64,000 bases of DNA. It comes from an uncultured Acidobacteriota bacterium (lineage in GTDB: Bacteria; Acidobacteriota; Thermoanaerobaculia; UBA5066). Shown one piece after another: positions 8,557-30,802 of the stretch (position 1 is the first letter of the stretch; each line of letters opens with the position of its first letter). The stretch is taken from NCBI GenBank assembly GCA_963779415.1, contig CAVZYA010000001.1:1408001-1472000 (forward strand), read 5' to 3'. Under the pieces are notes generated by a model. The model was not told where the DNA came from. It saw only the letters and a program-made list of their open reading frames with translations, and made no database searches. A program made the translations under genes and the position numbers.

Positions 8557-8608
8557 AGCAGAGTACCGATCATGGACCTGACCCAATCGTCCGTGACCCT
8601 ATCGTCCG
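8557..8608 (+). repeat. 28-bp dispersed motif, copy 1, with 15-bp tandem duplication
   Basis: AGCAGAGTACCGATCATGGACCTGACCC (8557-8584); TGACCCWATCGTCCG at 8579-8593 and 8594-8608. Confidence 0.75.
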
Positions 8609-8693
8609 CGTCGTCTGGGCCATCGAGGAAGGCCGCAAAGCCGCCCAAGGCGTCGACAAGAACCTCATGTACGGGGAGACATATCTGGCGTGA
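8609..8693 (+). repeat. Diverged direct-repeat copy of gltD 3' end
   Basis: Aligns with 7864-7948; encodes [27 protein letters not shown] versus [27 protein letters not shown]. Confidence 0.92.
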
Positions 8694-8735
8694 GGAGCTG
8701 ACTTGTTGAGGACTCGGCCACTGAATCGCAACTTA

Positions 8736-8805
8736 GCAGACCTGACCCTACAAGCTACAAGTTTGCAGACCTGACCCTACAAGCTCTCTGACCCTACAAG
8801 CTCTC
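8736..8805 (+). repeat. Tandem array of motif core
   Basis: GCAGACCTGACCCTACAAGCT at 8736 and 8765; TGACCCTACAAGCTCTC at 8772-8788 and 8789-8805. Confidence 0.9.
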
Positions 8806-8822
8806 TCCGGCGGCCGCTGGCC

Positions 8823-9848
8823 CTAGTTGCAGTCGCACGCGGGGAGAGGGCGCCTCAGGGTGCCGCCAGTCCAGCTCGTCCGGCTGACCCCTTTGCCTCG
8901 CCTCATCTCCCGTCCCATCAACTTGACGGCGCAGCCGGATGCGTCCCTCCCGAACCAGAGCGTGTACATGGCCCCCTCCGGGCACCCGACGTAGAGCGTC
9001 GTCCACGCCTCCTCGCCCGCCAGAAGGTCCGCCAGGCTCTCTTTCACGGCAGACCGGGCTTGCTCCGGTTCTTCGCCTTTCGCGGCCAGAATCGCCACCG
9101 TCTGCTCCTCGAGCTCCGCGGCGCAGTCCGGCTTCCGCAGGTCGACTCCCTGGTCGTACCACGCCTCCGGAGGCCGGCCCGGCCCGGCTGAACAGTCCTC
9201 GGCCGCGGGATCGAGGAGCAGCGCCACCGAATCCTGCCGTTCCCAGGAACCGGAGGCCATGTCCCCCCGCTTCAGATCGCCACTCGCCCTGAAGCTGTCC
9301 GTCATGACGAGCCGCCCGTCGGCGAGCCGGAAGAGGCGGCTCTCGCGGTGCCGGCCGCCAAGATAGAGACTAGGCGAGTAGGAATCCGAATGGAGGATCC
9401 CGGCGAGGACGAGGCCCAGGACATTGCCCACAACATTGATACCGATCATCGCGCCGACGTTCGGGCGGACCTCCTTCCACGGGACGACGAGGGCACCTTC
9501 CTTCCAGCCTGCCTTGAACCTCGCCGGCAGGAAGGCCTCCTGGACCTCGACGCCGTCGCGGTTCGTGTATGTGAAGGAGACCCGCTCGGCCGTCGCCTCG
9601 ACGGAGACCTTCGTCGGCTCCCCGAGGGCCTCGACGTCGAGGAAGGGGATCAGCTTCGGATCTCGCCGGAAGGTCCGGAGATTGAAGTCGGGGCCGAAGT
9701 AGCAGAAGTCGCCGGAGAGCTGCTCGACGGTGGCCGCCTCTTTCGGCGAGGGAGGGATGAGATTCGGGGGCGGAGCGTCGGATGCACAGCCCGCCAGGGA
9801 AAGGGCCAGCAAGCAGCCGGCCGAAACGAGGCGGCGAGAGGTCATCAT
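8823..9848 (-). CDS. Hypothetical lipoprotein
   Basis: Signal peptide with LAGC lipobox; no family recognised. Confidence 0.75.
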   Translation of the reverse strand: MMTSRRLVSAGCLLALSLAGCASDAPPPNLIPPSPKEAATVEQLSGDFCYFGPDFNLRTFRRDPKLIPFLDVEALGEPTKVSVEATAERVSFTYTNRDGVEVQEAFLPARFKAGWKEGALVVPWKEVRPNVGAMIGINVVGNVLGLVLAGILHSDSYSPSLYLGGRHRESRLFRLADGRLVMTDSFRASGDLKRGDMASGSWERQDSVALLLDPAAEDCSAGPGRPPEAWYDQGVDLRKPDCAAELEEQTVAILAAKGEEPEQARSAVKESLADLLAGEEAWTTLYVGCPEGAMYTLWFGRDASGCAVKLMGREMRRGKGVSRTSWTGGTLRRPLPACDCN

Positions 9849-10137
9849 TCACCTCCCCTCTCCCGATCGTCTCGGGGAAGGATTCGCCCGGCCCGCCGGA
9901 CGGAACCCCGGGCCTCTTGGGCGCCGCCGGCTCGCCGGACACTTCCAACGTAGCCTCCCGACGGCGCTGAATCCTCAGGATTTCGCAGGGTTTTTCCGGG
10001 ACCCGGGCCGTACCGCCGCCAGACGAAAAGTGGATCAGGCCTCGTTCCTGCATTCCGTTGACGTGACTTGCTCGACCCCCGGGATCGACGATCTTCACGA
10101 CCAGAGCGGCCGGGGGCAGCAACTATCATGGAACCCG

Positions 10138-10518
10138 ATGGCGGCCAAGCCGGAAAGTTCGTACCGGAAGATCTGGGCGGTCGTTTCGAAGATCCCGCGC
10201 GGCCGCGTCGCGACCTACGGACAGATCGCCCGGATGGCGGGCCTGCCGAACCATGCGCGCCTCGCGGGGTACGCGCTCCACGGCCTTCCCGCGGCGAGCC
10301 CCGTCCCGTGGCACCGCGTCGTGAACGCGAAGGGCGAGGTGAGTCCGCGCCGTGACGGCTCCGGCCACGACCGACTTCAGCGCGTGATGCTCGAGAGGGA
10401 GAAGGTCCGCTTCGACCCGAAGGGCCGAATCGACCTTGCCGCGCATCGCTGGCGGCCGGCCGACGGGCATTCGTTCCGCCTGGGGTCGGCATCTGTCTTG
10501 AAGGTCAAGGATCGGTGA
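10138..10518 (+). CDS. Alkyltransferase-like protein (ATL, MGMT family)
   Basis: IPRGRVATYGQIA and PWHRVV (Trp replaces catalytic Cys). Confidence 0.9.
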   Translation: MAAKPESSYRKIWAVVSKIPRGRVATYGQIARMAGLPNHARLAGYALHGLPAASPVPWHRVVNAKGEVSPRRDGSGHDRLQRVMLEREKVRFDPKGRIDLAAHRWRPADGHSFRLGSASVLKVKDR

Positions 10519-10617
10519 CAGGCAAGGTTATCGGGGCCAAGCCGGCGCCTCGAATCACACCTTGGCAGACATGACCTCGATGGCTCAGGGATCGCCTCAA
10601 GCCATAATTGCTGGGAC

Positions 10618-11175
10618 ATGGACAGAGACACCGTGCGCCAGCTGGTCTTCATTGCGATCTTTTCCTCTTTCGCATCGAGAGCCGCGGGACAGGCCCAGCC
10701 GTCACCCGCGCCGACGCCGGACCCGACCGCGCCCCTTCGAGAGGAGGTGCAGCGGCTTCAGAAGGAAGTCGATTCCCTCGAGGCCAGGCTGCGCGAATGT
10801 TCTTCGAGCGCGCCTGCCCCGGCCGCCCTCCCGACCGCGCTCGAGATCGCCGAGTTCCGGTATCAGGAAGCGCTCGCCGCCGTGAAGGCCATCGAACAGG
10901 TCATCGGCGACCCGTACTCGAAATTCCACCGCCGTTACATCGAGGCCAAGGTGAAGATGGATGGGCTTTCGGGCTCGGGACCTCGCGAAGAGGGTCTCCG
11001 GAAGGTCATGCAGATCTTCGAAAAAGCCGATTACAAGATGAGCCTGGGGAGTGGAAACCCAAGCTCCTATGGCATGCAAGCCGGAATTGAACTCTGCGTT
11101 CGAGCACAGGCCGCGCTCGCCTCTCTGGTCGCCGCGCAGCCGAAGACAGCGGCACCCACGCAGACGACGCATTAG
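10618..11175 (+). CDS. Hypothetical secreted protein with coiled coil
   Basis: Signal-like N-terminus, Pro linker, LREEVQRLQKEVDSLEARL. Confidence 0.65.
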   Translation: MDRDTVRQLVFIAIFSSFASRAAGQAQPSPAPTPDPTAPLREEVQRLQKEVDSLEARLRECSSSAPAPAALPTALEIAEFRYQEALAAVKAIEQVIGDPYSKFHRRYIEAKVKMDGLSGSGPREEGLRKVMQIFEKADYKMSLGSGNPSSYGMQAGIELCVRAQAALASLVAAQPKTAAPTQTTH

Positions 11176-11235
11176 GAGTCGGGGCCGGCAGGTCTGACTC
11201 TCTCCGGCACAAGACCAGGTTCCTTCAGAAGCGAT

Positions 11236-11754
11236 TCAGGGACCGCTCTTGCCGCCGCTCCAGTCTTCTCGCGCGCCGGGGGGGAGTGAATCCATATGCT
11301 TCAGGAAGAGCGTCAGCTGCCAGATCTCCCCGTCGGAGAGGGAGTGGCCGTACGCCGGCATGCCGGTGAAGCGGATGCCGTGCGTGATCTTCCAGTGCGT
11401 CGTCGCCTCCGGATCGTCCTCGACGCCGTGCTTCGCCAGTTGCGGCGGGTCGGGCGTCAGGCCCTTCGCGATCGAAGAGGCCACGCCGTCGGGGCCGCCG
11501 TGACAGGTCCGACAATGCATGTTGTAGAGCATGATGCCCGCCGAGAAGTTCTCGGCGGTCGGCGGCAGCGGGTCGGTCACTCCTTTCGTCTGCCGGCCGA
11601 TCGCCGCCCGAAGCGACGCCTTTGCAACCCACCTCTCGAGCCTTCCCGGTTTCACGTCCTGTCCCATCGGCATGGCGCCGCCGGTGACGAAGAAGTAGGC
11701 GCCGGCGAGAGCCGCAACGATCGTGAGGAAGATCCCGAGAACAAATCCCTTCAT
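11236..11754 (-). CDS. Membrane-anchored c-type cytochrome
   Basis: N-terminal TM, CRTCHG heme motif, HGIRFTGMPAY. Confidence 0.9.
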   Translation of the reverse strand: MKGFVLGIFLTIVAALAGAYFFVTGGAMPMGQDVKPGRLERWVAKASLRAAIGRQTKGVTDPLPPTAENFSAGIMLYNMHCRTCHGGPDGVASSIAKGLTPDPPQLAKHGVEDDPEATTHWKITHGIRFTGMPAYGHSLSDGEIWQLTLFLKHMDSLPPGAREDWSGGKSGP

Positions 11755-11814
11755 CCCGGACCCCCTTTCAAAACCTCTCGTCGGGCATCATATCGTTCAG
11801 CCTCGAAGGTCTCG

Positions 11815-11885
11815 GAGTCAGGTCTTGCACCTCTAGTCTGCGCGGTCACGGGCTTTCGCTGCTTCACACGAAAGCAGACCTGAGC
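11815..11885 (-). repeat. 28-bp motif, copy 2, with inverted partial core
   Basis: GAGTCAGGTCTTGCACCTCTAGTCTGCG (11815-11842); GCAGACCTGA at 11874-11883. Confidence 0.8.
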
Positions 11886-11999
11886 GCTGGTCCTTCGCCG
11901 GCGGGCGATGAGAACGAGTCGCAGGCGCCTCTTCGATATGATCCGGCCGGTCCGTCTCCAGCCAGGGATTGAAGCCGTGAACGAACGACCGAGGTCACG

Positions 12000-13016
12000 A
12001 TGAAAACACCGAAGACGAGCTTCCCTCCGGCGACTCTCCTTCTCCTGCTGCCTCTCCTCTTGCCGCTCCGGGCGCTCTCCGACGACGCCCTTGGGACGCT
12101 GACGGTCCTCGGGAAGACGACGATCCTCAAGGAGGTCGCCGCCGCGGAGCAGTCCGACCCGGAGAGCGAGTCCGTCCGGTGGCTCGTCATCCTGGCGTCC
12201 GACCGGAAGGTCGAGGAAGGAGATCGCTCCCCCGCGCGGCTCCTCGACCTCGCGCGAGCCGGCAGGCTGCACGCCGTGAGGATTCTCTGGAAGGTGGGGA
12301 CGGACACCGTGCGCGCCGTGCCGTACGACGCGGCCTTTCCGCAGAGCGGCCGGATGGCGCTCGAGCGTCCGACGATCGACCTGCGCCGATTCGGCAGCGG
12401 GCGGGTCGACGCCGAGTTCCAGTCGAAGATGACCGGTCAGAGCTGGTTCTTCCACGCGAACGTGAAGGCAGCCGTCGCCTCTGGCGGCGTCGCGGAGCTG
12501 GAGCCGGAGGCCGACGAGACCGCCGAGGCTTCCGCGCCCGCCGGAGGCGCGGGCGGAAGCGGCGACACGCCGAAGAAGCTGGCCCTCGGGAAGCTCGGCT
12601 ACGAGTACACCGAGTCGATGTTCGGGCACGCCGTTGCCGACGGAAACCTCGACGCCGTCCGCCTCTTCCTCGAGATCGGGATGTCCCCGAACGCCCGCGA
12701 AAAGGGCGACGCGCACCCGATGCTTCTCGCCGCGCAGCTCTGCACGGACGAGTCCTCTCTCAAGCCCCGATCCGGAGTGCTCGAGGCGCTCGTCGCCGCC
12801 GGCGGAGACGTGAAGGCGAAGGACGACAACGCCTCGACGCCGCTTCTCTGGGCGGTGCAGACCGGCTGCTCGCCAGCCGCGATCCGGGCGCTCCTGAAAG
12901 CCGGCGCCGACCCGAACGCCCGGGCGAAGGCCGGCGCCACGCCCCTGATGTTCGCCGAGATCTTCCAGCGCACGGAGATCGCCGAGATCCTGCGGAGCGC
13001 CGGGGCGAAGAAGTGA
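12000..13016 (+). CDS. Secreted ankyrin-repeat protein
   Basis: Signal peptide; TPLLWAV, LLKAGADPNARAKAGATPLMFA. Confidence 0.85.
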   Translation: MKTPKTSFPPATLLLLLPLLLPLRALSDDALGTLTVLGKTTILKEVAAAEQSDPESESVRWLVILASDRKVEEGDRSPARLLDLARAGRLHAVRILWKVGTDTVRAVPYDAAFPQSGRMALERPTIDLRRFGSGRVDAEFQSKMTGQSWFFHANVKAAVASGGVAELEPEADETAEASAPAGGAGGSGDTPKKLALGKLGYEYTESMFGHAVADGNLDAVRLFLEIGMSPNAREKGDAHPMLLAAQLCTDESSLKPRSGVLEALVAAGGDVKAKDDNASTPLLWAVQTGCSPAAIRALLKAGADPNARAKAGATPLMFAEIFQRTEIAEILRSAGAKK

Positions 13017-13125
13017 GTCGGGGAAGGGCGCGGCCGCGCCAACTTCCAATGAGACTGGGTCTCGTCTTCCTATAAGATTCGCCTCCGGGGCCCGACGTTC
13101 CCGGAAGGAAGGCGATGGGTCTTTC

Positions 13126-14292
13126 GTGACGAGCGCCGCGAGGTTCGACGGGGCGGTCCTCTCCCGCGAGGAGGTGATGCGCTACTCGAGGCACCTCCTT
13201 CTCCCCGAGGTCGGGATGCGGGGGCAGGAACGGCTCAGGAAGGGAAGCGTCCTCCTCGTGGGGGCGGGCGGGCTCGGCTCGCCGGCGGCCCTCTACCTCG
13301 CGGCGGCGGGCGTCGGGCGGATCGGGCTCGTCGACTTCGACGTCGTCGAAGAGTCGAACCTCCAGCGGCAGATCCTCCACGACTCGCGCTGGCTCGGGAA
13401 GCCCAAGCTCGAGAGCGCGGCAGACCGGCTTCGTGCTCTGAACCCGCACGTCGAGGTCGTCCTCTTCCCCGAGCGGCTCACCGCCGGGAACGCCTTCCCG
13501 ATCCTGGACGGCTTCGACGTCGTCCTCGACGGAACCGACAACTTCGCGACCCGTTACCTGACGAACGACGCCTGCTTCCTCGCCGGAAAGCCGAACGTCT
13601 ACGGGTCGATCTTCCGCTTCGAAGGACAGGTCAGCGTCTTCTGGCCGGGGAAGGGGCCGTGCTACCGGTGCCTCTACCCGGAGCCCCCCCCGCCGGGACT
13701 CGTCCCGAGCTGCGCGGAGGGGGGAGTCCTCGGCGTCCTCCCGGGGGTCATCGGCTCGCTGCAGGCCACCGAGGCGATCAAGATCCTCCTCGGCGTCGGG
13801 CGGTCGCTCGCGGGGCGTCTCGTCCTCTATGACGCCCTCGACCTCTCGTTCCGGGAACTGAAGCTGAAGCCCGACCCCGCGTGCCCGCTCTGCGGAGAGA
13901 ACCCGACGATCACGGGGCTCGTCGACTACGACGAGCTCTGCGGCCTCGTCCGCGGGGAGGACGCCGCCCACGAAGGCTCGGAGATCTCCGTCGCCGTCCT
14001 GAAGGAGTGGCTCGACCGCGGAGAGAACGTCCGGATTCTCGACGTCCGCGAGCCCCCCGAGACGGAGATCTGCTCGATCGCGGGGGCGCGCCTGATCCCG
14101 CTGGCGAGCCTCCCGGAGCGGCTCGGCGAGATCGAGCCGGAGGTCCCGCTCGTCGTCTACTGCCACGTGGGCGTCCGGTCGGCCCACGCCGTCCGGTTCC
14201 TGAGATCGGCGGGGCTCGCGAGAACCTACAACCTGAAGGGAGGGATCCTCGCCTGGGCGCGGGAGATCGATCCGTCCCTCGCGACGTACTGA
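13126..14292 (+). CDS. moeB: MoeB/MoeZ-type E1-like adenylyltransferase with rhodanese domain
   Basis: RYSRHLLL, GAGGLG, SNLQRQ, CYRC/CPLC zinc sites, PSCAEGG, YCHVGVRS. Confidence 0.92.
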   Translation: MTSAARFDGAVLSREEVMRYSRHLLLPEVGMRGQERLRKGSVLLVGAGGLGSPAALYLAAAGVGRIGLVDFDVVEESNLQRQILHDSRWLGKPKLESAADRLRALNPHVEVVLFPERLTAGNAFPILDGFDVVLDGTDNFATRYLTNDACFLAGKPNVYGSIFRFEGQVSVFWPGKGPCYRCLYPEPPPPGLVPSCAEGGVLGVLPGVIGSLQATEAIKILLGVGRSLAGRLVLYDALDLSFRELKLKPDPACPLCGENPTITGLVDYDELCGLVRGEDAAHEGSEISVAVLKEWLDRGENVRILDVREPPETEICSIAGARLIPLASLPERLGEIEPEVPLVVYCHVGVRSAHAVRFLRSAGLARTYNLKGGILAWAREIDPSLATY

Positions 14293-14337
14293 CCTGGGCG
14301 GCCACGACAGACGAGTCGCCAGCGGAAGGGAGGAAAC

Positions 14338-15516
14338 ATGAGCGGAGTCAGGGTGCTCGTCGGGACACGCAAGGGCGCGTTCGTCCTGACGTCGGACGGG
14401 AAGCGCAAGCGATGGAAGGTCAGCGGCCCCCACTTCGCCGGCTGGGAGGTCTACCACCTCAAGGGATCGCCGGCCGACCCGGACCGCCTCTACGCGTCGC
14501 AGTCCAGCGGCTGGTTCGGGCAGGTGATCCAGCGCTCCGACGACGGCGGAAAGACGTGGGAGGCGCCCGGAGGCGGCGTTACGAAGTCGCCGGAAGGCTT
14601 CCCCCAAGGCGAGAGCAACAAGTTCGTCTACGACGTCTCGCCAGGCACCGGACGGCCCCTGACGACCCACCAGTTTTACGACGGTACGCAGCACCCCTGG
14701 GAGTTCAAGCGCGTCTGGCACCTCGAGCCCTCGCCCACCGATCCGGAGACGGTCTTTGCCGGAGTCGAGGACGCCGCCCTCTTCCGCTCGGTCAACGGCG
14801 GTCAGACGTGGCAGGAGCTTCCCGGACTCCGCGGCCACGAAACGGGGCCGCGCTGGCAGCCGGGTGCCGGAGGGATGTGCCTGCACACCATCCTTCTCGA
14901 CCCGAGCAACCCCGGGAGGATCTACATTGCCATCTCGGCGGCCGGCGCTTTCCGGACCGACGACGGCGGCATCACCTGGCGGCCGATCAACCGCGGCCTG
15001 AGGTCCGAGCAGATTCCCGATCCGAACGCCGAGGTCGGCCACTGCGTCCACCGGATCGCGATGCACCCCTCGCGCCCGAACGTCCTCTTCATGCAGAAGC
15101 ACTGGGACGTCATGCGGAGTGACGATGCCGGGGAGTCGTGGCGCGAGATCAGCGGAAACCTCCCGACCGACTTCGGCTTCCCGATCGACGTCCACGCGCA
15201 CGAGCCGGAGACGATCTACGTCGTCCCGATCAAGAGCGACTCGGAGCACTATCCGCCCAACGGCAGGCTGCGCGTCTACCGGAGCCGGACGGGGGGAAAC
15301 GAGTGGGAGGCGCTCACGAAAGGGCTGCCGCAGCGGAACTGCTACGTCAACGTGCTGCGTGACGCGATGGCCGTCGACGCGATCGATCCATGCGGCGTCT
15401 ACTTCGGCACGACCGGCGGGCAGGTCTACGCCTCGGCGGACGCCGGCGACAGGTGGAGCCCCATCGTCCGGAATCTTCCGGCGGTCCTCTCGGTCGAGGT
15501 CCAGACGCTGCCATGA
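14338..15516 (+). CDS. BNR/Asp-box beta-propeller protein (sialidase-like fold), cytoplasmic
   Basis: Repeated [32 protein letters not shown]; no signal peptide. Confidence 0.88.
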
Positions 15517-15809
15517 TCCGGGTCGTCCTCCCGCCACACCTCCGGACGCTCGCGCGCGTCGGCCGCGAGGTGACGCTCGACGTCGAGGGTCCGGCCACGC
15601 CGCGCTCCGTCCTCGACGCCCTCGAGGCCCGCTACCCGATGCTGCGCGGGACGATCCGCGACCACGTCACGCGGGAGCGCCGGGCGTTCGTCCGGTTCTT
15701 CGCCTGCGCCGAGGACCTGTCCCACGAACCGGCGGACGCCCCGCTCCCCGAGGCGGTCACGACCGGCAAGGAGCCCTTCCTCATCGTCGGGGCCATGGCG
15801 GGAGGCTAG
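15513..15809 (+). CDS. MoaD/ThiS ubiquitin-like protein
   Basis: 98 aa ending AMAGG; ATGA overlap with propeller gene. Confidence 0.9.
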
Positions 15810-15859
15810 GAAGTCTCGCCCGGACGGGAGACGAAAATCTGCGCCGCTAGAATCCGGGC

Positions 15860-16624
15860 GTGAGCGTCCGCTACGAGATCGAGGGGGCGGTCGCGGTCGT
15901 CACGATCGACCGGCCGGAATCGAAGAACGCCGTCGACGGCCCGACGGCCGCCGAGCTGGCCGAGGCGTTCCGGCGGTTCGAGGGGGAGGAGGCGGCCGCC
16001 GTGGCGGTCCTGACGGGGGCCGGCGGAACGTTCTGCGCGGGGGCCGACCTGAAAGCCCTCGGGACGGCCCGGGGGAACCGGCTCGAGACCGACGGTGACG
16101 GCCCGATGGGCCCGACGCGCCTTTCGCTCACGAAGCCCGTCATCGCGGCAATCGAAGGCTTCGCGGTGGCGGGAGGGCTGGAGCTGGCGCTCTGGTGCGA
16201 CCTCCGCGTGGCCGCGCGCGACGCCGTCCTCGGGGTCTTCTGCCGGCGCTTCGGCGTCCCTCTCGTCGACGGCGGGACCGTGCGGCTTCCGCGCCTCGTC
16301 GGCATGAGCCACGCCCTCGACCTGATCCTGACCGGGCGCCCGGTCTCGGGAGACGAAGCCCTCCGCATGGGACTCGTCAACCGGCTCGTCGAGCCCGGCC
16401 GGGCGCTTGCGGCGGCCGTCGCCGAAGCACAGGCGCTCGCGCGCCTGCCGCAGCGCTGCCTTCGGTCGGACCGGCTGTCGGCCTACGAGCAGTGGAATCT
16501 GGCGCTCCCCGCCGCCCTCGAGAACGAGCTGCGGAGGGGAGAAGAGGTCCTTTCTTCGGGCGAATCTGCCGCGGGGGCGGCCCGATTCGCCTCCGGCGCC
16601 GGTCGTCACGGCGAGCCCGAGTAG
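15860..16624 (+). CDS. Enoyl-CoA hydratase/crotonase family
   Basis: FCAGADL, KPVIAAIEGFAVAGGLELALWCDLR. Confidence 0.93.
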   Translation: MSVRYEIEGAVAVVTIDRPESKNAVDGPTAAELAEAFRRFEGEEAAAVAVLTGAGGTFCAGADLKALGTARGNRLETDGDGPMGPTRLSLTKPVIAAIEGFAVAGGLELALWCDLRVAARDAVLGVFCRRFGVPLVDGGTVRLPRLVGMSHALDLILTGRPVSGDEALRMGLVNRLVEPGRALAAAVAEAQALARLPQRCLRSDRLSAYEQWNLALPAALENELRRGEEVLSSGESAAGAARFASGAGRHGEPE

Positions 16625-16655
16625 CCCGCGAGCCGAGATCGGGCTCTCGTGCCGC

Positions 16656-17666
16656 TTACTGCATCAAGCGCCTGACTCCGGCGCAGATCCGCTCTCTGTT
16701 GGGGAGGCACTCGGTCTCCAGACGACGCGCGTACGGGATGGTCGTCTGCGTGCAGACCCGGGCATACCGGAAGGAGACCCCGGCCTCGAGGACCGCGGCG
16801 GCCACCTCCCCGGAGAGACCGAAGCCTTCGTAATCCTCGTCGACCACCAGCAGACGCCCGGTCCGCGCCACCGCTTCGCAGACGGTCCCCTTGTCGAGTG
16901 GAGCCACCGTCCGCAGGTCGATCACGCCGGCCGCAATTCCCTCCGCCTCGACCACCCGCGCCGCCTCCACGGCGCGGTGCACGCCGACCCCGACGCTGAC
17001 GATGGTCACGTCACTCCCCGACCGGCGAAACGCGGCCTTTCCGATCGGGAGAGGCTCCCATTCGTCCGGCACGTCGCTTCGGGTTCCCCCGGAGGGGACG
17101 TCGAACTCGACCGTGCGCCGCCCTCCCGAGCCGAGAAACTCGAGCCACATCTCGGACAGCAGCTTGTGCTCGAGAAAGACGGTCGGCCCGTCGTGCCGGA
17201 GCGCGGCCAGCATCAGCCCGCCCGCGTCGGCCGGCGTCGACGGCACCAGGACCGTCAGCCCCGGGATGTGCGCCAGCCAGCCCCACAGCGACTGTCCGTG
17301 CTGCCCTCCGTCGCCGTAGCCGCCGCCGCACCCAGCGCGCACCACGACCGGAGCGTTCCACCGGCCCCCGGTGAACGCCTCCACCTTGGCCGCGTGGTTG
17401 AGAAGCGCGTCCATGCACACTCCCAGAAAATCCACCATGTAGATCTCGACGACCGGGCGCAGTCCGGACATCGCCGCCGCCACGCCGGCCCCCAGAAGAG
17501 CGCTCTCGCTGATGGGAGCACCCCGGACGCGCCCGGGACCGAACCGCACGAGGAGGTTTCGGCGCAGAAGGGGGATGTCCTCGCCCAGGAGGACGACGCG
17601 AGGGTCCTCGGCCATCGCATGGGCCAGCGCGTCGTCGATCGCTTCCGTGAATGACATCTCCCTCAT
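16656..17666 (-). CDS. 2-oxoacid/acetoin dehydrogenase E1 beta subunit
   Basis: VVLLGEDI, APISE, GLRPVVEI, IDLRTVAPLD. Confidence 0.9.
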   Translation of the reverse strand: MREMSFTEAIDDALAHAMAEDPRVVLLGEDIPLLRRNLLVRFGPGRVRGAPISESALLGAGVAAAMSGLRPVVEIYMVDFLGVCMDALLNHAAKVEAFTGGRWNAPVVVRAGCGGGYGDGGQHGQSLWGWLAHIPGLTVLVPSTPADAGGLMLAALRHDGPTVFLEHKLLSEMWLEFLGSGGRRTVEFDVPSGGTRSDVPDEWEPLPIGKAAFRRSGSDVTIVSVGVGVHRAVEAARVVEAEGIAAGVIDLRTVAPLDKGTVCEAVARTGRLLVVDEDYEGFGLSGEVAAAVLEAGVSFRYARVCTQTTIPYARRLETECLPNRERICAGVRRLMQ

Positions 17667-18691
17667 GACGCCACCGGCTCCAAGGCCGCCTCGAGCGCGT
17701 CTCCCGCCTCCCTCTCGATCCTGCGTTCCAGCTCCTGCAGGCGGAGCGGGGCCGACTCCAGGTGCGCCCGCGCCCGCCGAAGCGGGTCGCTCGCCGGCTC
17801 GCGGCGCGGATCGCGCAGCGTCGAGATCACGGCCGCGAGAACCGTCCTGAGCCCCGCAAGGCGCTCTCGCACGGCCGCCCCGCCCGGACGCAGGATCGAG
17901 CGCGTGAGCGCGCCCGCGACGGCCGGCATCTCCCGGACCGGATCGCGCACCATTCGGATCAGCTGATAACCAAGGAAGTGGCCTTCGAAATGAATGCACC
18001 GCGCGTGAAGGAACGCCGGGCCCTGACCGGAGCGCGCGCGCTCGAGCGCCGCGTACGCCGCTTCCCACACCTCGGAGACGTCGCCCCCGTCGATCTCCGA
18101 GAAGGCGAGGCCAAGTCCGCGCGCCCGTTCGCCGAAAGACCCGCCGGTGACGCTCTCGGATCGTGTCGTGATGGCCCATCCGTCGTCCTTGCAGACGAAC
18201 AGCACGGGCAGGCGCCAGGCGGACGCGAGGTTCATCGACTCCATCAACATCCCCTGGTTCATGGCGCCATCTCCAAAGAAGGCGATGGCGACCGCGCCGG
18301 GGCGAAGGGACTCGGCGGACAGCGCGAAGCCGACGGCAGTCGGCCCCGCGGCGCCGACGATTCCCGAAGAGGCCGCGAGGTGCTGCCGCGAAAAGAGGTG
18401 CATGTGTCCGCCCCGGCCGCCGCAGAGACCTCGCGGGTAGCCGAGCAGCTCCCGAAGGATCAGGACGGGATCGACGCCGCGCATGAGCAGGGCCGCGGTG
18501 CCGCGGTGATCCAGCGCCATGGCGTCGCCGTCGCGTAACTGGCTCACGACCCCCGCGATGGTCGCCTCTTCGCCCGTTCCGAGATGCATCTCGCCGGAGA
18601 TCAATCCGTCATGCCAGAGCCGGGCAACGGCCTCCTCGACCACGCGGCTCCTGAGCATCAGGGGATAGAGGGACCAGAGGTCCGCCGGCAT
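17663..18691 (-). CDS. 2-oxoacid/acetoin dehydrogenase E1 alpha subunit
   Basis: HLGTGEEA, GRGGHMH, TPP motif FFGDGA; GAGGAG RBS before ATG 18691. Confidence 0.9.
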   Translation of the reverse strand: MPADLWSLYPLMLRSRVVEEAVARLWHDGLISGEMHLGTGEEATIAGVVSQLRDGDAMALDHRGTAALLMRGVDPVLILRELLGYPRGLCGGRGGHMHLFSRQHLAASSGIVGAAGPTAVGFALSAESLRPGAVAIAFFGDGAMNQGMLMESMNLASAWRLPVLFVCKDDGWAITTRSESVTGGSFGERARGLGLAFSEIDGGDVSEVWEAAYAALERARSGQGPAFLHARCIHFEGHFLGYQLIRMVRDPVREMPAVAGALTRSILRPGGAAVRERLAGLRTVLAAVISTLRDPRREPASDPLRRARAHLESAPLRLQELERRIEREAGDALEAALEPVAS

Positions 18692-18735
18692 GATCTCCTC
18701 CCCGAGTCGTCCCCGGAAGAGGATATCGCCTTCTG

Positions 18736-18990
18736 GCAAGGCCGCCCGAGGCGTGGACAAGTATCTGATGTACGGGGAGACGTATCTGCCATGACCGACC
18801 CGTCCTGGTCTCGCGGAAGGAAGAGCCATAAGAGATGGGCCGCACCGCGGACCGCCGGCGCCTGCAGAACCTCGAAGGCGAAGAAGACCTCAAGGACACC
18901 CGTTCCGCGCGCGTCGAGATGAAACGGAAGGGAACGGTCTCCTGGGAGAAGGTCAAGGCGGACCTGGGACTGAAGTAGCCCGTGGCGGCC
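18736..18990 (+). pseudogene. Relic: gltD 3' end, intergenic spacer, internally deleted antitoxin and first codons of toxin
   Basis: 18736-18842 aligns with 7890-7997; 18844-18990 aligns with 8122-8268. Confidence 0.9.
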
Positions 18991-19000
18991 GGAGTCAGCG

Positions 19001-21713: not shown

Positions 21714-21740
21714 AAGGTGTACTGGAGGAGAGGAGAGGTC

Positions 21741-21771
21741 CGTATAATTGGGGTCCGACCCCTATTGTACG
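21741..21771. repeat. REP-like palindrome containing GGGGTC/GACCCC
   Basis: CGTATAATTGGGGTC-C-GACCCCTATTGTACG, 13/15 arm match, between convergent genes. Confidence 0.7.
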
Positions 21772-21802
21772 AGTAGCCGGCCCGTCCGATCGGCGGCCGG
21801 GA

Positions 21803-22366
21803 TCAGAACTGGATGCCGAACGTGACGGGAATGCTGACGAGGCCCTTCCCCTGCACCCTGAAATAGACCCCGTTGGCCTCCACGAAGAACCACTTCGTCG
21901 AAAAGCCGGCTCCGGCGTTGTACGAGATGTTCGATTCCGTCCCGGTCACGGTCCCGCAGCCGGGGCACCGCGTTTCCCCGCGAAGGCTCCGGGAGCCGAG
22001 CCCCAGGTCGACGTAGAGGCCGTCGGCTTCCTTCCCCAGCAGCCGGATCGCCACGTTCGCGTCGAAGCCGAAGAGCGTGCTGCTGCCGATCGCGGTGCTG
22101 GACGGATCCGACGTCTTGGGAGGGTTCTGGCCGTAGTAGCCCGCTCCCCTCACTCCGATGAAGAAGGACGACGGAAACCAGAGAGCCCGGACGGCCGTGC
22201 TCCAGCCCGACTTGTAGGAGTCAAAGAAAGTCCCCGTCACGATCGTCGTCCCACCCCCGATGCCGAGCTTGAAATCGTCGGCCGACGCCGGGTGCGCGAG
22301 CGTCAGGGCGAGCAGGACGACGGATGCCGGGACGAGAGGATTCCGAAGGCACGATCTTCGTCTCAC
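21803..22366 (-). CDS. Outer membrane beta-barrel protein
   Basis: Signal peptide, alternating beta strands, C-terminal Phe (GIQF); GTGA overlap with upstream gene. Confidence 0.75.
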   Translation of the reverse strand: MRRRSCLRNPLVPASVVLLALTLAHPASADDFKLGIGGGTTIVTGTFFDSYKSGWSTAVRALWFPSSFFIGVRGAGYYGQNPPKTSDPSSTAIGSSTLFGFDANVAIRLLGKEADGLYVDLGLGSRSLRGETRCPGCGTVTGTESNISYNAGAGFSTKWFFVEANGVYFRVQGKGLVSIPVTFGIQF

Positions 22367-22938
22367 GGAATGGAGATCCTTCCTCCGACGAGCAGGATGG
22401 AGAAGTTCACACCCGGATTGTTCTCGCCGAAGTTCGCGTTGGAGATGTGGACCCAGCGCCAGCCGACGACGGTCGACCACGTCTTGCCTGTCTTCACCGC
22501 GATCCCGACGCCGGCCTGAACGAGGAAATTGAGCGCGGTTCCGGAAGGGGGTACGCGATCCGTCGAGCCGCAGAGGCCGAGGGCGAGTTCCGTGTAAGGC
22601 GCGATCCGGTCTCCCGTCTCCACCGGGAACCACCGCAGGATGCCGTCGCCGGCGAAGGCGACCGTCGTCTGGCGGTCCGTCCCGCCCTTCGTTCGCGGCT
22701 GTTCGATCCATAAGACGGGGTGCAGCTCGCCCCCCAGCTCCACCCGGGGGCCGAGCCTCCAGACCGCCTCGAGGTTCGGGACGAGCGTCTCCGAGAAGCC
22801 GTCGGGCGACGGGGAGAAGCTCTGCCCCGCCATCAGGGAAAACGAAACGCTCCTCGTCGCGACGGGCCACGCCCCTTCGTCGGCCGCTCCGGCAATGCCC
22901 GGCAGGAGCAGGAACGCGAGGAGCGGTCGAACTCCCAC
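22363..22938 (-). CDS. PagL-like lipid A 3-O-deacylase / acyloxyacyl hydrolase
   Basis: NFLVQAGVG and HISNA...NPGVN motif. Confidence 0.8.
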   Translation of the reverse strand: MGVRPLLAFLLLPGIAGAADEGAWPVATRSVSFSLMAGQSFSPSPDGFSETLVPNLEAVWRLGPRVELGGELHPVLWIEQPRTKGGTDRQTTVAFAGDGILRWFPVETGDRIAPYTELALGLCGSTDRVPPSGTALNFLVQAGVGIAVKTGKTWSTVVGWRWVHISNANFGENNPGVNFSILLVGGRISIP

Positions 22939-22963
22939 GTCCCCATTATTTTCCGCTCGGGCC

Positions 22964-26312: not shown

Positions 26313-27197
26313 ATGTTGACCATCTCCGGAGTGTCGAAGAGGTTCTCGAACGGCGTTTACGGCATCCAGGACCTTTCCCTGGACGTCGAAGGCGGAGTCC
26401 TGGGCCTCCTCGGCCCGAACGGCGCCGGCAAGACGACCCTGATGCAGATGATCGCCACGCTCACGAAGCCCACGGCGGGGCGCATTTCGTTCCAGGGGAT
26501 CGACGCCGCCCGCGACCCCGAGGCGATCCGGGCGCGCCTGGGATACCTCCCGCAGGACTTCGGCGTCTACGAGAACCTCACGGCGTTCGAGATCCTCGAC
26601 TACCTCGCTCGGCTGAAGGGCGTGAGAAGCAAGAGCCGCATCCTTTCCATGCTCGAGGTCGTGAACCTCCATGCCGTCGCGCACCGCGCGGTCGGGACGT
26701 TTTCGGGCGGCATGCGGCAGCGCCTCGGCATCGCGCAGGCCCTCATCGGCGAGCCCGAGCTTCTCATTGTGGATGAGCCGACCGCGGGACTCGACCCCGA
26801 GGAGCGGGTCCGCTTCCGGAACGTCCTTTCGGAGCTGGGCTTCGGGAAGCTCGTGCTGCTCTCCACTCACATCGTCTCGGACATCGAGTCGATCGCGAGC
26901 ACCATCGCCGTCGTGAAGGCGGGCCGCCTCGTGGCGCACGACACGCCCGAGGGCCTCCTCGGCAAGGCCGCCGGCTCGGCCTGGGAGGCGGTCATGCCTT
27001 CGGAGGAGTTCGAGCGGGTGCGCCCGACGCTGACCGTGTCGAACGCCGTGCGGAAGCCGGACGGCGTCCACCTCCGCCTCGTCGCGGCCAGCGCGCCGGT
27101 GGCGGGTGCCGTGGCGGTCGAGCCCAACCTCGAGGACGCCTATCTTTTCCTGATGAGGACAGCGGGCGGCCCGGCCGCGGACGTGCGCGCGGCATGA
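26313..27197 (+). CDS. ABC transporter ATP-binding protein
   Basis: GPNGAGKTT, FSGGMRQR, LLIVDEPT, H-loop. Confidence 0.95.
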   Translation: MLTISGVSKRFSNGVYGIQDLSLDVEGGVLGLLGPNGAGKTTLMQMIATLTKPTAGRISFQGIDAARDPEAIRARLGYLPQDFGVYENLTAFEILDYLARLKGVRSKSRILSMLEVVNLHAVAHRAVGTFSGGMRQRLGIAQALIGEPELLIVDEPTAGLDPEERVRFRNVLSELGFGKLVLLSTHIVSDIESIASTIAVVKAGRLVAHDTPEGLLGKAAGSAWEAVMPSEEFERVRPTLTVSNAVRKPDGVHLRLVAASAPVAGAVAVEPNLEDAYLFLMRTAGGPAADVRAA

Positions 27198-28795
27198 GCC
27201 CGGTTCGCGTCCTGGCGGTCGCGCGGAGCGATGCCCGGGCACGCATGCGGCGTCCCGTTTTGGCGTTCCTCCTCGTCGCCGTCCCACTTCTCGTCTACGT
27301 CGCCATACCGGACCCGCGCACGGGACGGGGGATCCTCGAGATCGAGAAGGCGCGCGCCCTCTACACGTCGCCGGCTCTCGCCTTCGCGACGGCCGGGCTC
27401 CTCCCCTTCCTCCTCGCCCTCTTCGGCTTCTACCTCGTGAACGGAGCCCTCGAGAACGACCGCCTCACGGGGATGGGGCTCGTCGCCGGCTCCACTCCGG
27501 TCTCCGATGCCGAGTACCTTCTCGGCAAGCTTCTCGGGAACATCACCCTGCTCGCCGCCGTGACCTTCGGCTTCATGACGAGCGCCATGGCCATGCACCT
27601 CGTCCGCGGAGAAGGGCCGCTCCAGCCCCTGGTCTACCTAGCGCACTACGCGGTCCTGGTCGGCCCCTCCCTCGTCAGCGTGGCCGCCCTGGCTCTCTTC
27701 TTCGAGTGCGTCCCCGCCCTTTCCGGCCGCGGGGGCGACGTTCTCTACTTCTTCGTCCTCACCGGGGCGATCCCGCTGTCGGTCGAGCCCTGGCGAGCGC
27801 CCGGCACCACCGGGATCTCGCCGGGCGCCTTCTTCGATTTCTCGGGGCTCGCCTTCGTCATGCGGGAGGTGGCGCGGTCGGCCGGCACGACCCACTTCTC
27901 GCTGCACCTCGGCTCGTCCGAGGTCACCCGGGCGACGACGACGTTTCCGGGCCTGAGCTTCACGCTCGATTCCCTGGCCGTGAGGGCGGCGTCCCTGGCC
28001 CTTCCCGCGCTTCTCTTCGGGGCGTCCGTCGTCGCATTCCGGCGCTTCGACCCGTCGCGCGAGAGGGCGAAGCGCTCCTCACCCAAGCAGGGCCCGATTG
28101 CCTTTCTCAACTCCCTGGCACGCCCGGTGACCTCGCGCCTCCTCGCGCTCGCGGGACGGCCGGGCCGCGAGCATCCCGAACGCGCGCCTGGCTTCGGCCG
28201 TTTCCTCACCGCGGACGCCACCTTGACGCTGCGTCTCCAACCGGTCCTCGTCCCCACGGCCCTCGCCGGGGCCGTCCTCTCGTTCAGTCTGAAAACAGAC
28301 GGCGTCATGCGCGTCCTCCTGCCGGTCCTCTTCGCGCTCCTCGCCGCCACCCTCTCCGAGGTGTCGACCCGCGACGAAGCCGCCGGAGTCTCGAACGTCG
28401 TCTTCGCGGCGCCGCGCGTGCGCGCCCGCTTCGCCCTCTGGAAGCTCGCCTCCGCCACGGTCGTGGCGCTCGTCCTGACGGGCCCGCCGGCCCTCCGGCT
28501 CGCTTTCTCGCGGCCGGCCGCGGCCCTCTCGGTCCTCCTCGGGACGCTCGTGGCCGCGTCGCTCGCGGTTCTCCTCGGCCTCGCGACGGGAACGCCGAAG
28601 ACCTTCCTCGTCCTCTACCTCGCCTTCTGGTACGTCGTCCTGAACGACGGCGGGCACGCGCCCGCCCTCGATTTCGCCGGCTGGTACGGGCTCGCCACCC
28701 CGGGCGTCCAGGCCGCGTACTTCGCGGCCCTGATCCTGATGGCGGCTGCGGCCTCGGCCGTTCAGGCGGCGAAGAACCGGCGGCACTCCGGCTGA
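27194..28795 (+). CDS. ABC transporter permease
   Basis: Multi-TM protein, EYLLGKLLG, ATGA-coupled to ATPase. Confidence 0.8.
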   Translation: MSPVRVLAVARSDARARMRRPVLAFLLVAVPLLVYVAIPDPRTGRGILEIEKARALYTSPALAFATAGLLPFLLALFGFYLVNGALENDRLTGMGLVAGSTPVSDAEYLLGKLLGNITLLAAVTFGFMTSAMAMHLVRGEGPLQPLVYLAHYAVLVGPSLVSVAALALFFECVPALSGRGGDVLYFFVLTGAIPLSVEPWRAPGTTGISPGAFFDFSGLAFVMREVARSAGTTHFSLHLGSSEVTRATTTFPGLSFTLDSLAVRAASLALPALLFGASVVAFRRFDPSRERAKRSSPKQGPIAFLNSLARPVTSRLLALAGRPGREHPERAPGFGRFLTADATLTLRLQPVLVPTALAGAVLSFSLKTDGVMRVLLPVLFALLAATLSEVSTRDEAAGVSNVVFAAPRVRARFALWKLASATVVALVLTGPPALRLAFSRPAAALSVLLGTLVAASLAVLLGLATGTPKTFLVLYLAFWYVVLNDGGHAPALDFAGWYGLATPGVQAAYFAALILMAAAASAVQAAKNRRHSG

Positions 28796-28799
28796 GTCG

Positions 28800-28851
28800 A
28801 GTGCTCCGGGGTCAAGTGCTCCGGGGTCAGGTCTTGCAGCTCTAGTCTGCT
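28800..28851 (-). repeat. 28-bp motif, copy 4, with perfect 15-bp tandem duplication
   Basis: GGGTCAGGTCTTGCAGCTCTAGTCTGCT (28824-28851); AGTGCTCCGGGGTCA at 28800-28814 and 28815-28829. Confidence 0.88.
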
Positions 28852-29025
28852 CGGCCGAGCACCCGTTCTCCACGGCAGCTGAGCCTCTTTCTCGAACCAA
28901 CACGGCTTCCGAAAGCAATGCAAGCCCGGATGGTCTTCATTCGAGGCATCTTCAGGAGTCCTTATGGGTTCTTAACAAGCTGGCGGCGCCGAGGGGTGTA
29001 CGATTTCCGTCTCGGGAGACCCGGA

Positions 29026-29274
29026 ATGAATAAATGTCCCGTCTGCGGAAATGAAGCGGCGACGTTCGTCAGCCACGGGGGCAAAGCCAGCGGCGTGCGC
29101 CGGCGCTCCTGGTTCGTCCACTGTCCCTCGTGCCCGACGTCATTCAACATCTCGCCCGAGCTGGTCAACGAGCTCGACGGTCGTCCCGCTCAAGCCTCAG
29201 AGATGCGAGCCCGCTGGCTGCAGCGAATGACGGAGGCAGCCAGGCGGGGAGAGAAGATGACCATCCTCTATTGA
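29026..29274 (+). CDS. Small zinc-ribbon protein
   Basis: 82 aa, CPVC and CPSC; GGGAG upstream; longer start at 28918 possible. Confidence 0.65.
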   Translation: MNKCPVCGNEAATFVSHGGKASGVRRRSWFVHCPSCPTSFNISPELVNELDGRPAQASEMRARWLQRMTEAARRGEKMTILY

Positions 29275-29316
29275 GGCTCTCAGGACCAGGCCCCATTTCT
29301 ACGGCCCACTCGGGAT

Positions 29317-30195
29317 TCAGCTCGTGATGATGGAATTGCGGATGTAGTCGCTCCACTGGGCGGCCGGGAACTTCGGCTCGGACGGGGCCGTATTGGCCTT
29401 CACGTTCATGTTCCAGGCGAAGTCGGAGAAGAGCCCCATCCTCTGGCGGAGCGCGGTCGGCGTGACGTTAAGGACCATCGCGTCCACGGCCCAGGCCAGA
29501 TCTCCCTTGGGATACGCCGCCCGGACCTCGTCGAGGGCGTGGATGAAGGTGTCCTCGTTGAACTGGCAGTGGGTGATCACCCCCAGCCTGGGCGAGGTCA
29601 GGGAGAGGATCTTGCCGAACAAGGATGCAGGCGTGTGGGAGTTGTCGATAATCGTCTGTGCGACCTGGACGGACTCGTTATAGGTGGAATCTCCCTGGTT
29701 CACGGCTCCGTTCTTCTGCGCCCAGACGTCCGCATCGAGAGCCATCTCGTGGATCAGGACGTCCGCCCCGGCCGCCTGCTGCGTCAGGAAGGTGTTCGGC
29801 CTCGTGTCACCCGAGAAGACGATGTTCATGCCGCCGTAGTTCAACTTGAAGCTGATCGCGCCGTCCCTGTCGTGCGCCGCCGGGAAGTGCGTGATGGTCA
29901 CCGGCGAGTTGACGCCCGGAGGCGGGTACGCCGGACCGCCCACCAGCATGTAGGGAAGCTCGTGAGGCACCAGGTCGTAGCCGTCCTGCGGGGTAGGGTC
30001 GGTGGTTCCCGTGGGGAGGAAGCTGAAGCTCTGGCGGTGCCATTTGGTCATCTTCATCACGAATTTGCAAAACTCCTCGGTCCCCTCCTCGGGGTGCGCG
30101 GTCAACGGGCCGTTGGGATACGGCTTCGGGAGGATCGGCCCGCTGGGTCCGTAGACGTGCAACGCGGTAAAGCGGTCGCCCGAGGGCCCGAAGCG
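29317..30195 (-). pseudogene. 5'-truncated RNase Z-like MBL-fold hydrolase
   Basis: LHVYGP, AAHDRDGA, FSGDT, ADVLIHE, SHT and ITH present; N-terminal HxHxDH absent. Confidence 0.7.
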
Positions 30196-30270
30196 CGCGA
30201 TTAGTGTTCATTTCTTGTTACCCGATTGTCGCGCTCCCGATATCGTCACGGCACAAGGAGCGGAGAACGG

Positions 30271-30705
30271 ATGTCGACCGAAATCCCCGTGGAAGTGAGG
30301 CGGATCTTCGAGAGCGCGTCGTTCGGCGCGGATCTCGGACTCGAGTTGGAGTCCGTCGGCCCGGGCACGTGCTCGTCGGCGCTCTCCCTGAAGCCCCGGC
30401 ATCTTCAGCAGGACGGGTTCGTCCACGCCGGCGTCCAGGCGACGGTCGCGGACCACACGGCGGGCGGCGCCGCCGCCTCGCTCCTCCGGAAGGGACAGTA
30501 CGTCCTCTCCACCGGGATCGAGATCCACCTGCTTCGCGCGGCGAAGGGGGAGAGGCTGATCTGCCGGGCCCGGGTGCTCAAGTCCGGAAGGCAGATCACG
30601 GTCGCCGAGTCGGAGGTCTTCTGCGTGGCCTCCGGCGAGGAGCGCCTCGTCTCGAAGGCGACCGTCACCCTCGCGGTTCTCAACCGGCGCGAGACGGGTT
30701 CATAG
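30271..30705 (+). CDS. PaaI family thioesterase
   Basis: HLQQDGFVHAGVQATVADHTAG. Confidence 0.9.
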   Translation: MSTEIPVEVRRIFESASFGADLGLELESVGPGTCSSALSLKPRHLQQDGFVHAGVQATVADHTAGGAAASLLRKGQYVLSTGIEIHLLRAAKGERLICRARVLKSGRQITVAESEVFCVASGEERLVSKATVTLAVLNRRETGS

Positions 30706-30802
30706 GGGTCGGGTCCCCCCCGCGCCGGGCGCACTCCCCTCTTCCGGAACCTCGCCGGTCGATAATCGGTCGCGATGCCCCACGGCTATATGGATAGGAC
30801 CC

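Follow-up and report, generated by a model that had tools for sequence, protein, structure and literature searches.

Within the window analysed here, a stretch of 64,000 nucleotides (nt) at positions 1408001-1472000 of contig C1 of the source genome (G000; 4.36 Mb, 68% guanine plus cytosine (GC), contigs C1-C3), four copies of a 28-nt motif lie between genes, with starts at 8557 (+), 11814 (-), 19001 (+) and 28823 (-), as the initial annotation of this DNA had stated (Table 1). Their neighbours, also as annotated, are a Phd/ParE toxin-antitoxin pair, a signal-peptide cytochrome c gene (11236-11754, minus strand; the 11814 copy sits 60 nt upstream of it), a gene for an FG-GAP/SLH protein, a zinc-ribbon open reading frame (ORF), a truncated ParE gene and a gltD-like 3' fragment. 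The motif had been taken for the recognition site of an undescribed gene-cassette capture and shuffling system, served by a Y1/HUH enzyme encoded elsewhere and related to the RAYTs, the tyrosine transposases associated with repetitive extragenic palindromes (REPs). Genes for such an enzyme were indeed located in the source genome. The motif itself is very probably the ~28-nt terminal inverted repeat (TIR) of TIRtrons, a known class of elements, and not a new system; that it might be the end of a catalogued element was the outcome which the initial annotation had itself named as speaking against its proposal.

Motif copies in the window

When the window was searched with the 10-nt core GACCTGACCC, allowing at most one mismatch, 23 matches were found compared to 7.69 +/- 3.06 in shuffled sequences, and none of 100 shuffles reached 23. 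Exact cores are present five times (8575+, 8739+, 8768+, 19019+ and 28824-), all within 8.5-28.9 kb. A genome-trained nhmmer profile recovered the copies at 11814, 19001 and 28823 with E-values of 1e-4 to 5e-4 and gave no copy across 31-64 kb, in agreement with the initial annotation. The copy at 8557 was missed by this profile; it is a diverged sub-variant (GATCATGGACC), which also flanks L001 and L002, the closest foreign homologues of the enzyme described below. Among the additional strong cores proposed initially, those at 8736 and 8765 were borne out as a separate type B (ATCGCAAnTTAGCAGACCTGACCC), whereas the one at 11874 is a 12-nt partial core; among the weak ones, 10565 (+) and 29281 (-) are plausible degenerate copies, but 11210 and 30705 are unconvincing. 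As a soil-metagenome contig of 91% identity covers the 11814 copy and holds the canonical GACCCC at that site, this copy is common to a relative.

DNA folding of five window copies led to z-scores of -1.56 to +1.58; none of the five beat its shuffles, and the REP-like structure suggested for the motif was thus not found. Rfam at gathering thresholds gave no match in the whole window, and literature full-text searches with GACCTGACCC and with the outer 12 nt of the motif (AGACCTGACCCC) returned primers and unrelated sequences only (for GACCTGACCC, among the matches listed). On inspection, a coding reading of the motif (ATG AGA CCT GAC CCC...) was rejected, as the sub-variants differ in start codon and frame. 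For the annotation of the window, the motif accounts for several truncated genes and orphan gene fragments.

Table 1. Motif copies, transposase genes and associated features. Positions are those of the window unless a contig of the source genome (C1 or C2) is given.
Feature	Position	Strand	Remarks
Intact TIRYT gene	C1 1390512-1391471		16.5 kb left of the window, nearest intact gene
Intact TIRYT gene	C2 1647097-1648056		
Intact TIRYT gene	C2 1690868-1691818		
Frameshifted TIRYT copy	C2 1273780-1274388		C-terminal domain continues in another frame
Left direct-repeat copy, 3' end of the intact gltD-like gene (6293-7948)	7866-7948	+	81 nt, 90% identical to 8609-8693
Toxin-antitoxin cassette	7999-8520	+	Phd/YefM-like antitoxin 7999-8256, ParE toxin 8260-8520
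TIR copy, diverged sub-variant (…CAGAGTACCGATCATGGACCTGACCC)	8557-8584	+	From the sequence; 37 nt past the ParE stop
Tail tandem duplication, 2 x 15 nt (TGACCCAATCGTCCG / TGACCCTATCGTCCG)	8579-8608	+	Sequence read directly; starts at GGACC/TGACCC
Right direct-repeat copy, 85-nt orphan gltD-like 3' end	8609-8693	+	Adjoins the TIR tail
Type-B TIR copy (CTGAATCGCAACTTAGCAGACCTGACCCT)	8721-8749	+	~30 nt past the orphan gltD stop; equivalent TIR position in two congeners
Second type-B core within a 29-nt tandem repeat	8765-8805	+	Followed by a 2 x 17 nt tail duplication (8772-8805)
Degenerate type-B copy (GAATCACACCTTGGCAGACATGACCTC)	10552-10578	+	Matched by eye only; plausible
TIR copy, sub-variant 1 (GCAGACTAGAGGTGCAAGACCTGACTCC)	11814-11841	-	nhmmer; one core mismatch, GACTCC
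Partial 12-nt core (GCAGACCTGAGC)	11874-11885	+	Weak; head-to-head with the 11814 copy
Decayed unit copy: 59-nt gltD end, 48 nt, antitoxin, toxin	18736-18990	+	83-87% identical to 7890-8268
TIR copy, sub-variant 1	19001-19028	+	nhmmer; in place of ParE from codon 4 on
Palindromic hairpin (TATAATTGGGGTCCGACCCCTATTGTA)	21741-21771		Separate small family; shares only the TATAAT and GACCCC boxes with the TIR
Tail tandem duplication, 2 x 15 nt (TGACCCCGGAGCACT)	28800-28829	-	Reaches to within 4 nt of the stop codon of gene 27194-28795
TIR copy, sub-variant 1 (GCAGACTAGAGCTGCAAGACCTGACCCC)	28823-28850	-	nhmmer
Degenerate copy, sub-variant 5 (GTAGAAATGGGGCCTGGTCC)	29281-29304	-	Matched by eye only; plausible

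TIRYT genes and their ends in the source genome

Sequence upstream of several motif copies, common to them, turned out to be the start of a divergent gene, and its translation gave proteins of 316-320 amino acids with the motifs 'GNHYHLL' and 'RYVVLNP'. By tblastn, six places encoding this enzyme (TIRYT) were detected in the source genome, comprising three intact genes, one frameshifted copy and two fragments; the initial annotation had suggested looking for a Y1 transposase gene with the motif on either side, and this search was positive. Motif copies facing outwards are present at both ends of every intact gene and of the frameshifted copy. The protein matched Pfam Y1_Tnp (6.2e-11) and, with residues 6-139 only, the NCBIfam model REP_Tyr_transpos (NF047646; 82.5 bits, cut-off 80). 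An alignment of 26 homologues showed H60-Y61-H62 and Y119-x3-N123-P124 to be invariant. The AlphaFold2 model (mean predicted local distance difference test score, pLDDT, 86.6) led in Foldseek to the E. coli RAYT on its REP hairpin as the best match (4er8_A, E 5.5e-7, TM-target 0.74), followed by TnpA of ISDra2 and of IS608. In addition, the C-terminus of the model matched the DNA-binding domain of DnaA (3pvp, TM-target 0.73), and a profile of the alignment detected DnaA domain IV in the PDB (1l8q, E 1.5e-5); the profile was required for this, as phmmer with the single protein gave no hits in the PDB.

The TIRYT paralogues of the source genome are 59-73% identical, and the inner part of the TIR differs from one of the four genes to the next, so that four sub-variants match the ends of four paralogues: ...GGTGCAAGACC; ...ATATGGGACC; ...TATAAT-N10-GACC or GGTACC; and type B, ATCGCAATTTAGCAGACC. 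In the window, the ...GGTGCAAGACC kind (sub-variant 1) is represented by the copies at 11814, 19001 and 28823, and type B by those at 8721 and 8765. Four pairs of enzyme and ends are present within one cell. A target-site duplication of whole TIRtrons was considered for the element at C2 1647097-1648056 and rejected because its left and right tails differ. On the inward strand of loci L004-L010, the AT-rich box of the TIR forms a -10 hexamer 6 nt ahead of the ATG (TAGAAT-N6-ATG; compare C1 1391471-1391500 of the source genome), a layout that a leaderless transposase mRNA would need.

Exact cores occur 58 times across the source genome. The copy set used for the following counts consists of 48 A-type copies (iterated nhmmer, E <= 1) plus those with the type-B pattern, 56 in total, or 57 with the 8557 copy; AGACCTGACCCY occurs 30 times compared to once for the backwards control. 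Most of the ~57 copies are solo, that is, without a gene, and scattered. The GC content within +/-2 kb of copies is 66.7% compared to 68.4% at random sites (per-cluster p 8e-5), and 25/56 copies lie at most 50 kb from a TIRYT gene or remnant, as do 9.8% of random sites. From the lower GC content, the clustering near TIRYT genes and the poor conservation in same-genus genomes, the association with variable DNA is real, and the placement claimed initially, in lower-GC DNA and often at synteny breaks or gene truncation points, is supported; as short repeats survive best in such DNA, the association nevertheless proves no cause. Another short repeat (63-148 nt, 83-95% identical) was observed ~100-150 nt past the tails of several TIR copies (C2 131744-131806, C2 288044-288106, C3 301263-301410, C1 690361-690443 and C1 691422-691524). 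In a survey of neighbours, 90 ORFs beside copies were collected, most of the short ones seemingly spurious, and as only six neighbour proteins were scanned, no enrichment of toxin-antitoxin genes is claimed.

Homologues and ends in other genomes

A scan of one genome per species yielded 376 loci encoding a TIRYT relative, of which the best 80 were retained; these belong to Acidobacteriota (Thermoanaerobaculia, Holophagales, Aminicenantes), Desulfobacterota, Nitrospirota, Verrucomicrobiota, a Dethiobacter and others, and the closest of them suggest Acidobacteriota for the source organism as well. In 50 of the 74 foreign loci with sufficient flank, AGACCTGACCCC with at most two mismatches faces outwards at both gene ends, whereas its reversed control was found in 3/160 flank regions. 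As it is present at the ends of most foreign loci, compared to this control, the outer 12 nt of the TIR are deeply conserved across several phyla. The inner part varies by lineage. Similarly, AGACCTGACCCY was detected in 32 of 41 related genomes (the unpublished G025 included), with 0 to 128 occurrences per genome and 0-3 for the backwards control. The TIRYT gene occupies one shared position in 14 or more Acidobacteriota assemblies, between a gene ending in ...KIPKSRLPK (stop) and a gene beginning with M..WKK.LIG (loci L014, L015, L017, L021-L023, L025, L026, L028-L031, L033, L035, L050 and L079), and this constant chromosomal position indicates vertical inheritance. At three of these loci (L050, L026 and L028) the downstream start codon directly adjoins the TIR. 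Genome G031 (L081-L085) contains head-to-head doublets of ~90-100 nt, similar to miniature inverted-repeat transposable elements (MITEs), placed directly after stop codons, and G035 (L087, L088, L089) has whole TIRs of 27 nt repeated in tandem, with 2-5 units per array; such arrays also border a TIRYT gene.

Comparison with known systems

Elements of this build have been described in two earlier papers. Di Nocera, De Gregorio and Rocco (2013; PMC3733652) introduced 'TIRtrons' for RAYT-like genes with flanking inverted repeats and 'TIRYT' for their enzymes, gave GGGGWSAS as a common TIR motif and described TIR families of moderate abundance for some genomes, that of the acidobacterium Koribacter versatilis among them. 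In the classification by Quentin et al. (2018; PMC6006769), TIRYTs fall into subclass 2.1 of the TnpA-Y1 transposases, the equivalent of RAYT group 1 in Bertels et al. (2017); subclass 2.1 has a C-terminal helix-turn-helix (HTH) similar to Bac_DnaA_C, no REP-like hairpins were found beside its genes and, with 14.9% of strains, it is described as the second largest subclass of Y1 transposases. The genes reported here share with these the length of ~320 amino acids, the HUH motif, the tyrosine in Y-x3-NP and the DnaA-C-like C-terminal HTH, and likewise lie between inverted repeats and not between hairpin REPs. In addition, GGGGTCAG of the motif (the reverse complement of CTGACCCC) fits GGGGWSAS, and the TIRs likewise occur alone, as dimers and in clusters, as a family of moderate abundance. 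Different are the four paralogues within one genome, each with its own TIR sub-variant, and the ~57 copies. The tail duplications, the 115-nt duplications of flank plus TIR and the bracketed toxin-antitoxin inserts described below are not mentioned in the accessible text of PMC3733652 and PMC6006769; 'target site' and 'tandem' each have no occurrence in one of the two. The fixed start of the tail duplications, the bracketed inserts and the lower-GC placement with clustering near TIRYT genes may be new.

The REP/RAYT systems with their REPINs (E. coli TnpA-REP, 4er8; Pseudomonas REPINs) provide the closest solved fold, and the NCBIfam RAYT model was passed. As in these, the gene lies between inverted copies of a short dispersed repeat and is present in few, diverged paralogues; in contrast, the TIR forms no hairpin and has no GTAG/CGTC tag at its ends, and TIRYT carries an extra DNA-binding domain. 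Classical REPs often number hundreds, whereas tens of TIR copies were found here. With the IS200/IS605 elements (IS608, ISDra2), TIRYT shares the Y1 HUH fold and the catalytic tyrosine, and for TIRYT, too, a nick beside a short conserved sequence is proposed. The TIR ends are, however, inverted and not on one strand, subterminal hairpins are lacking, the paralogues are 59-73% identical instead of identical copies, and there is no replication-strand bias.

Tail duplications and a candidate nick site

Directly outside the TIR, many copies carry a short tandem duplication of their tail. Under one scoring rule it was detected at 17/56 copies, compared to 6/5000 random sites and 5/778 other TGACCCY sites, and at foreign loci at 11/122 copies compared to 19/5000 random sites. 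The duplicated unit has 13-18 nt and starts nearly always at the base after AGACC (AGACG or AGACA in the variant family), while its other border varies. Similarly, a second GACCCY box 8-33 nt downstream was found at 18/56 and 18/126 copies, compared to 89/5796 control sites. As the variable part is still nearly identical in most copies with a second box, the events are young, and as only some lineages have the duplication at the position common to at least 14 Acidobacteriota loci, it arises in place. From its borders, the most likely position of a nick would be AGACN/YGACCCC (slash), and the duplications thus represent a sequence scar that indicates a testable nick site. Complementarity of the variable tail with the inner box was seen in one copy only and rejected. 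Tandem duplications with a period of 115 nt were also observed at two unrelated loci (C3 301480-301860 and C1 1539500-1539900), with a unit of ~72-80 nt of inner flank, the TIR and a tail of ~7 nt; that both have this length suggests a ruler in the mechanism.

The following model would accommodate these data. A TIRtron consists of a single gene, encoding a RAYT-like Y1/HUH transposase with a C-terminal HTH similar to DnaA domain IV (TIRYT), between two outward TIRs. Its HUH core would recognise and nick the conserved outer box, most likely at the position given above, and the HTH domain may read the variable inner box, in which case each paralogue would own its set of ends. Copies without a gene, whether solo, in head-to-head MITE-like doublets or in tandem arrays, would be spread in trans by the resident enzymes. 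Tail duplications could then be explained as nicking scars, left when 13-18 nt are added to the 3'-OH and the 5' end, linked to the tyrosine, is joined again. Where neighbouring DNA is deleted, truncated or occasionally inserted at TIRs, this would be a by-product of the same activity, with no dedicated cassette system.

Several points weigh against the assignment to TIRtrons and this model. Among the 74 foreign loci, AGACCTGACCCC was found, within the flanking sequence searched, at one end in 14 and at neither end in 10. A fifth sub-variant (GAGACGCGACCCC, ~9 copies) has no resident TIRYT gene in the source genome. Tail duplications are lacking in 39/56 copies, and those present may alternatively have arisen by replication slippage at a protein roadblock. 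Copies show no replication-strand bias (31 leading, 26 lagging, p 0.6) and therefore lend no support to a lagging-strand, single-strand mechanism like that of IS608. In the related genomes searched, no empty site was recovered for any window copy, and the mobility of solo copies is for this reason judged from their distribution only. TIR binding, cleavage and nick position of the enzyme we infer from sequence, and in the accessible text on TIRYT and TIRtrons, among the matches listed, no biochemistry, activity or function of TIRYT was found.

Toxin-antitoxin inserts, rearrangements and alternative explanations

At the left side of the window, the order is gltD-like gene, Phd/ParE pair, 8557 TIR with its 2 x 15-nt tail, duplicate of the gltD end and type-B TIR. 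The toxin was assigned by Pfam ParE_toxin (4.3e-11); the antitoxin matched PhdYeFM_antitox with 3.8e-5 and 23.8 bits, which is below the curated cut-off of 29.8. The orphan gltD end is 92% identical to the gltD end of the congener G007 and 90% to that of G003. In both of these genomes a TIR lies within ~35-45 nt of the gltD stop, with different sub-variants and unalike spacers, and in G003 a TIR is located 75 nt past the end of the ThiF-BNR synteny block. A decayed unit 10 kb away (18736-18990) lacks ~120 nt of the 5' part of the antitoxin gene, and its toxin gene is cut after three codons, where it runs into the 19001 TIR. Outside the window, a pair with a PIN toxin (Pfam PIN 1.1e-22; C1 1138634-1139541) ends in a type-B TIR, and on both sides of it lies a copy of the 5' end of the gene next to the pair (74 nt, 96% identical). 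This bracketed build applies to 2/57 copies; two others lie in the 115-nt tandem duplications.

These inserts speak for a sharpened form of the cassette reading of the initial annotation, in which the Y1 enzyme would excise a TIR together with neighbouring genes via a pseudo-site and the circle would re-enter a chromosome, with TIRs marking the borders. Two independent inserts do have one build, namely target segment, toxin-antitoxin pair, TIR and target repeat, and a third, decayed copy ends at another TIR; a GACCC-containing sequence in the same orientation was seen at the left border of each insert or close to it, and the TIRs after gltD in both congeners, like that beyond the ThiF-BNR block, would also fit. 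The left borders, however, were judged by eye and with no control, and the other 55 copies have no bracket. As the TIRs beside the two ParDE-type copies differ in sub-variant and position, the TIR did not travel with this unit. Diverged direct repeats are equally expected from RecA-dependent integration of a circle by single crossover or from an old duplication. No circle junction or empty site was found, and in the metagenome data a single joint (7875 to 8628) crosses the repeat and allows no clear reading. Six metagenomic DNA runs each contained at most 0.13 of the sampled words; among contigs from four of them, none spans the toxin-antitoxin insert, and the joints observed, with short sides of 23-30 nt at 90% identity, are given no weight as evidence. 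We therefore consider capture of cassettes to be unlikely. Integron cassettes and one-ended capture by HUH enzymes of the IS91/ISCR/Helitron type are analogous to this reading only, with small accessory genes, often toxin-antitoxin pairs, at a short conserved site and an HUH enzyme that could move DNA beside it from one end; a link to an integrase and an attC structure are lacking here, and TIRYT has one tyrosine and is not of the Rep/helicase type. An extended version appears similarly doubtful: TIRYT would nick at AGACN/YGACCCC and prime outward synthesis, giving duplications of 13-18, 27 and 115 nt, and a GACCC-like pseudo-site would occasionally serve as the second end, so that neighbouring genes move with one TIR and are re-inserted between target repeats of ~75-80 nt. 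If this were true, the largest and least understood RAYT group would, in several phyla, mobilise genes from one end and act as a local mutator, and the capture of cassettes, if it held, would offer small accessory modules a second route besides integrons.

Alternatively, copies might be kept as portable promoters that drive neighbouring genes, with the inner box (TATAAT, TAGAAT, CAGACT) as the -10 element. The box fits TAnAnT/CAnAnT in nearly all A-type copies despite the 68% GC of the DNA, a Shine-Dalgarno sequence and start follow 30-60 nt downstream of several copies (e.g. that of the cytochrome c gene at 11754), and the inward TAGAAT-N6-ATG of L004-L010 would also fit, as it may be the transposase's own leaderless promoter. 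A sigma-70 scan of 8000-22000, however, gave no full sites, the inner box is unlike a -10 element in other lineages (CCGAAAAATCG in G031, GATGTGGCAAGTGG in G035), and the copies at 8557 and 28823 face gene ends rather than starts, which makes this function improbable. In the same interval, terminator-like sites numbered 6 compared to 7.0 expected. The layout of the motif may also resemble dif modules and integron cassettes, and its 28-bp length, the alternating orientations in the window and the adjoining toxin-antitoxin pairs and orphan genes would suit sites of a tyrosine recombinase at module borders, either integron attC-like or Xer/dif-like. As the motif instead flanks Y1/HUH genes rather than recombinase genes, has neither dyad-symmetric arms nor a conserved hairpin and showed no RYYYAAC/GTTRRRY boxes on inspection, such sites can hardly be assumed; no search for an integron integrase was made. 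Ends of TIRtrons, present on both sides of the TIRYT genes, thus remain the preferred explanation of the motif.

Further observations

When 5000-20000 of the window was compared with contig C10 of G007, the gltD-like gene, a 341-amino-acid ORF, an MGMT-domain gene, the E1 alpha/beta genes and ThiF-BNR were found in a different order, and this 15-kb stretch has therefore been reshuffled within the genus. The stretches at ~8.5-13 kb are rearranged in all congeners. For 27900-29400, each of five same-genus genomes gave 0 to 3 short matches (best E 7.8e-5), none across the site, and the best match at the family level was 70% over 417 nt.

A low-GC stretch at ~18600-22600 (57-63% compared to ~69%) contains the FG-GAP/SLH gene (19476-21713) and, on the minus strand, a gene for a beta-barrel-like outer-membrane protein (21803-22870); its left edge is the 19001 TIR, and no TIR is present at its right edge. 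The sequence at 21741-21771, which had initially been listed as a palindromic form of the motif, lies between these two convergent genes and folds into a real hairpin (-9.1 kcal/mol as DNA, z -3.48). Its family, distinct from the TIR, has four members with the pattern TATAAT-W-GGGGTC-N-GACCCC-N-ATTRT, the other three being located at C1 249557, C1 1379467 and C3 256568 of the source genome.

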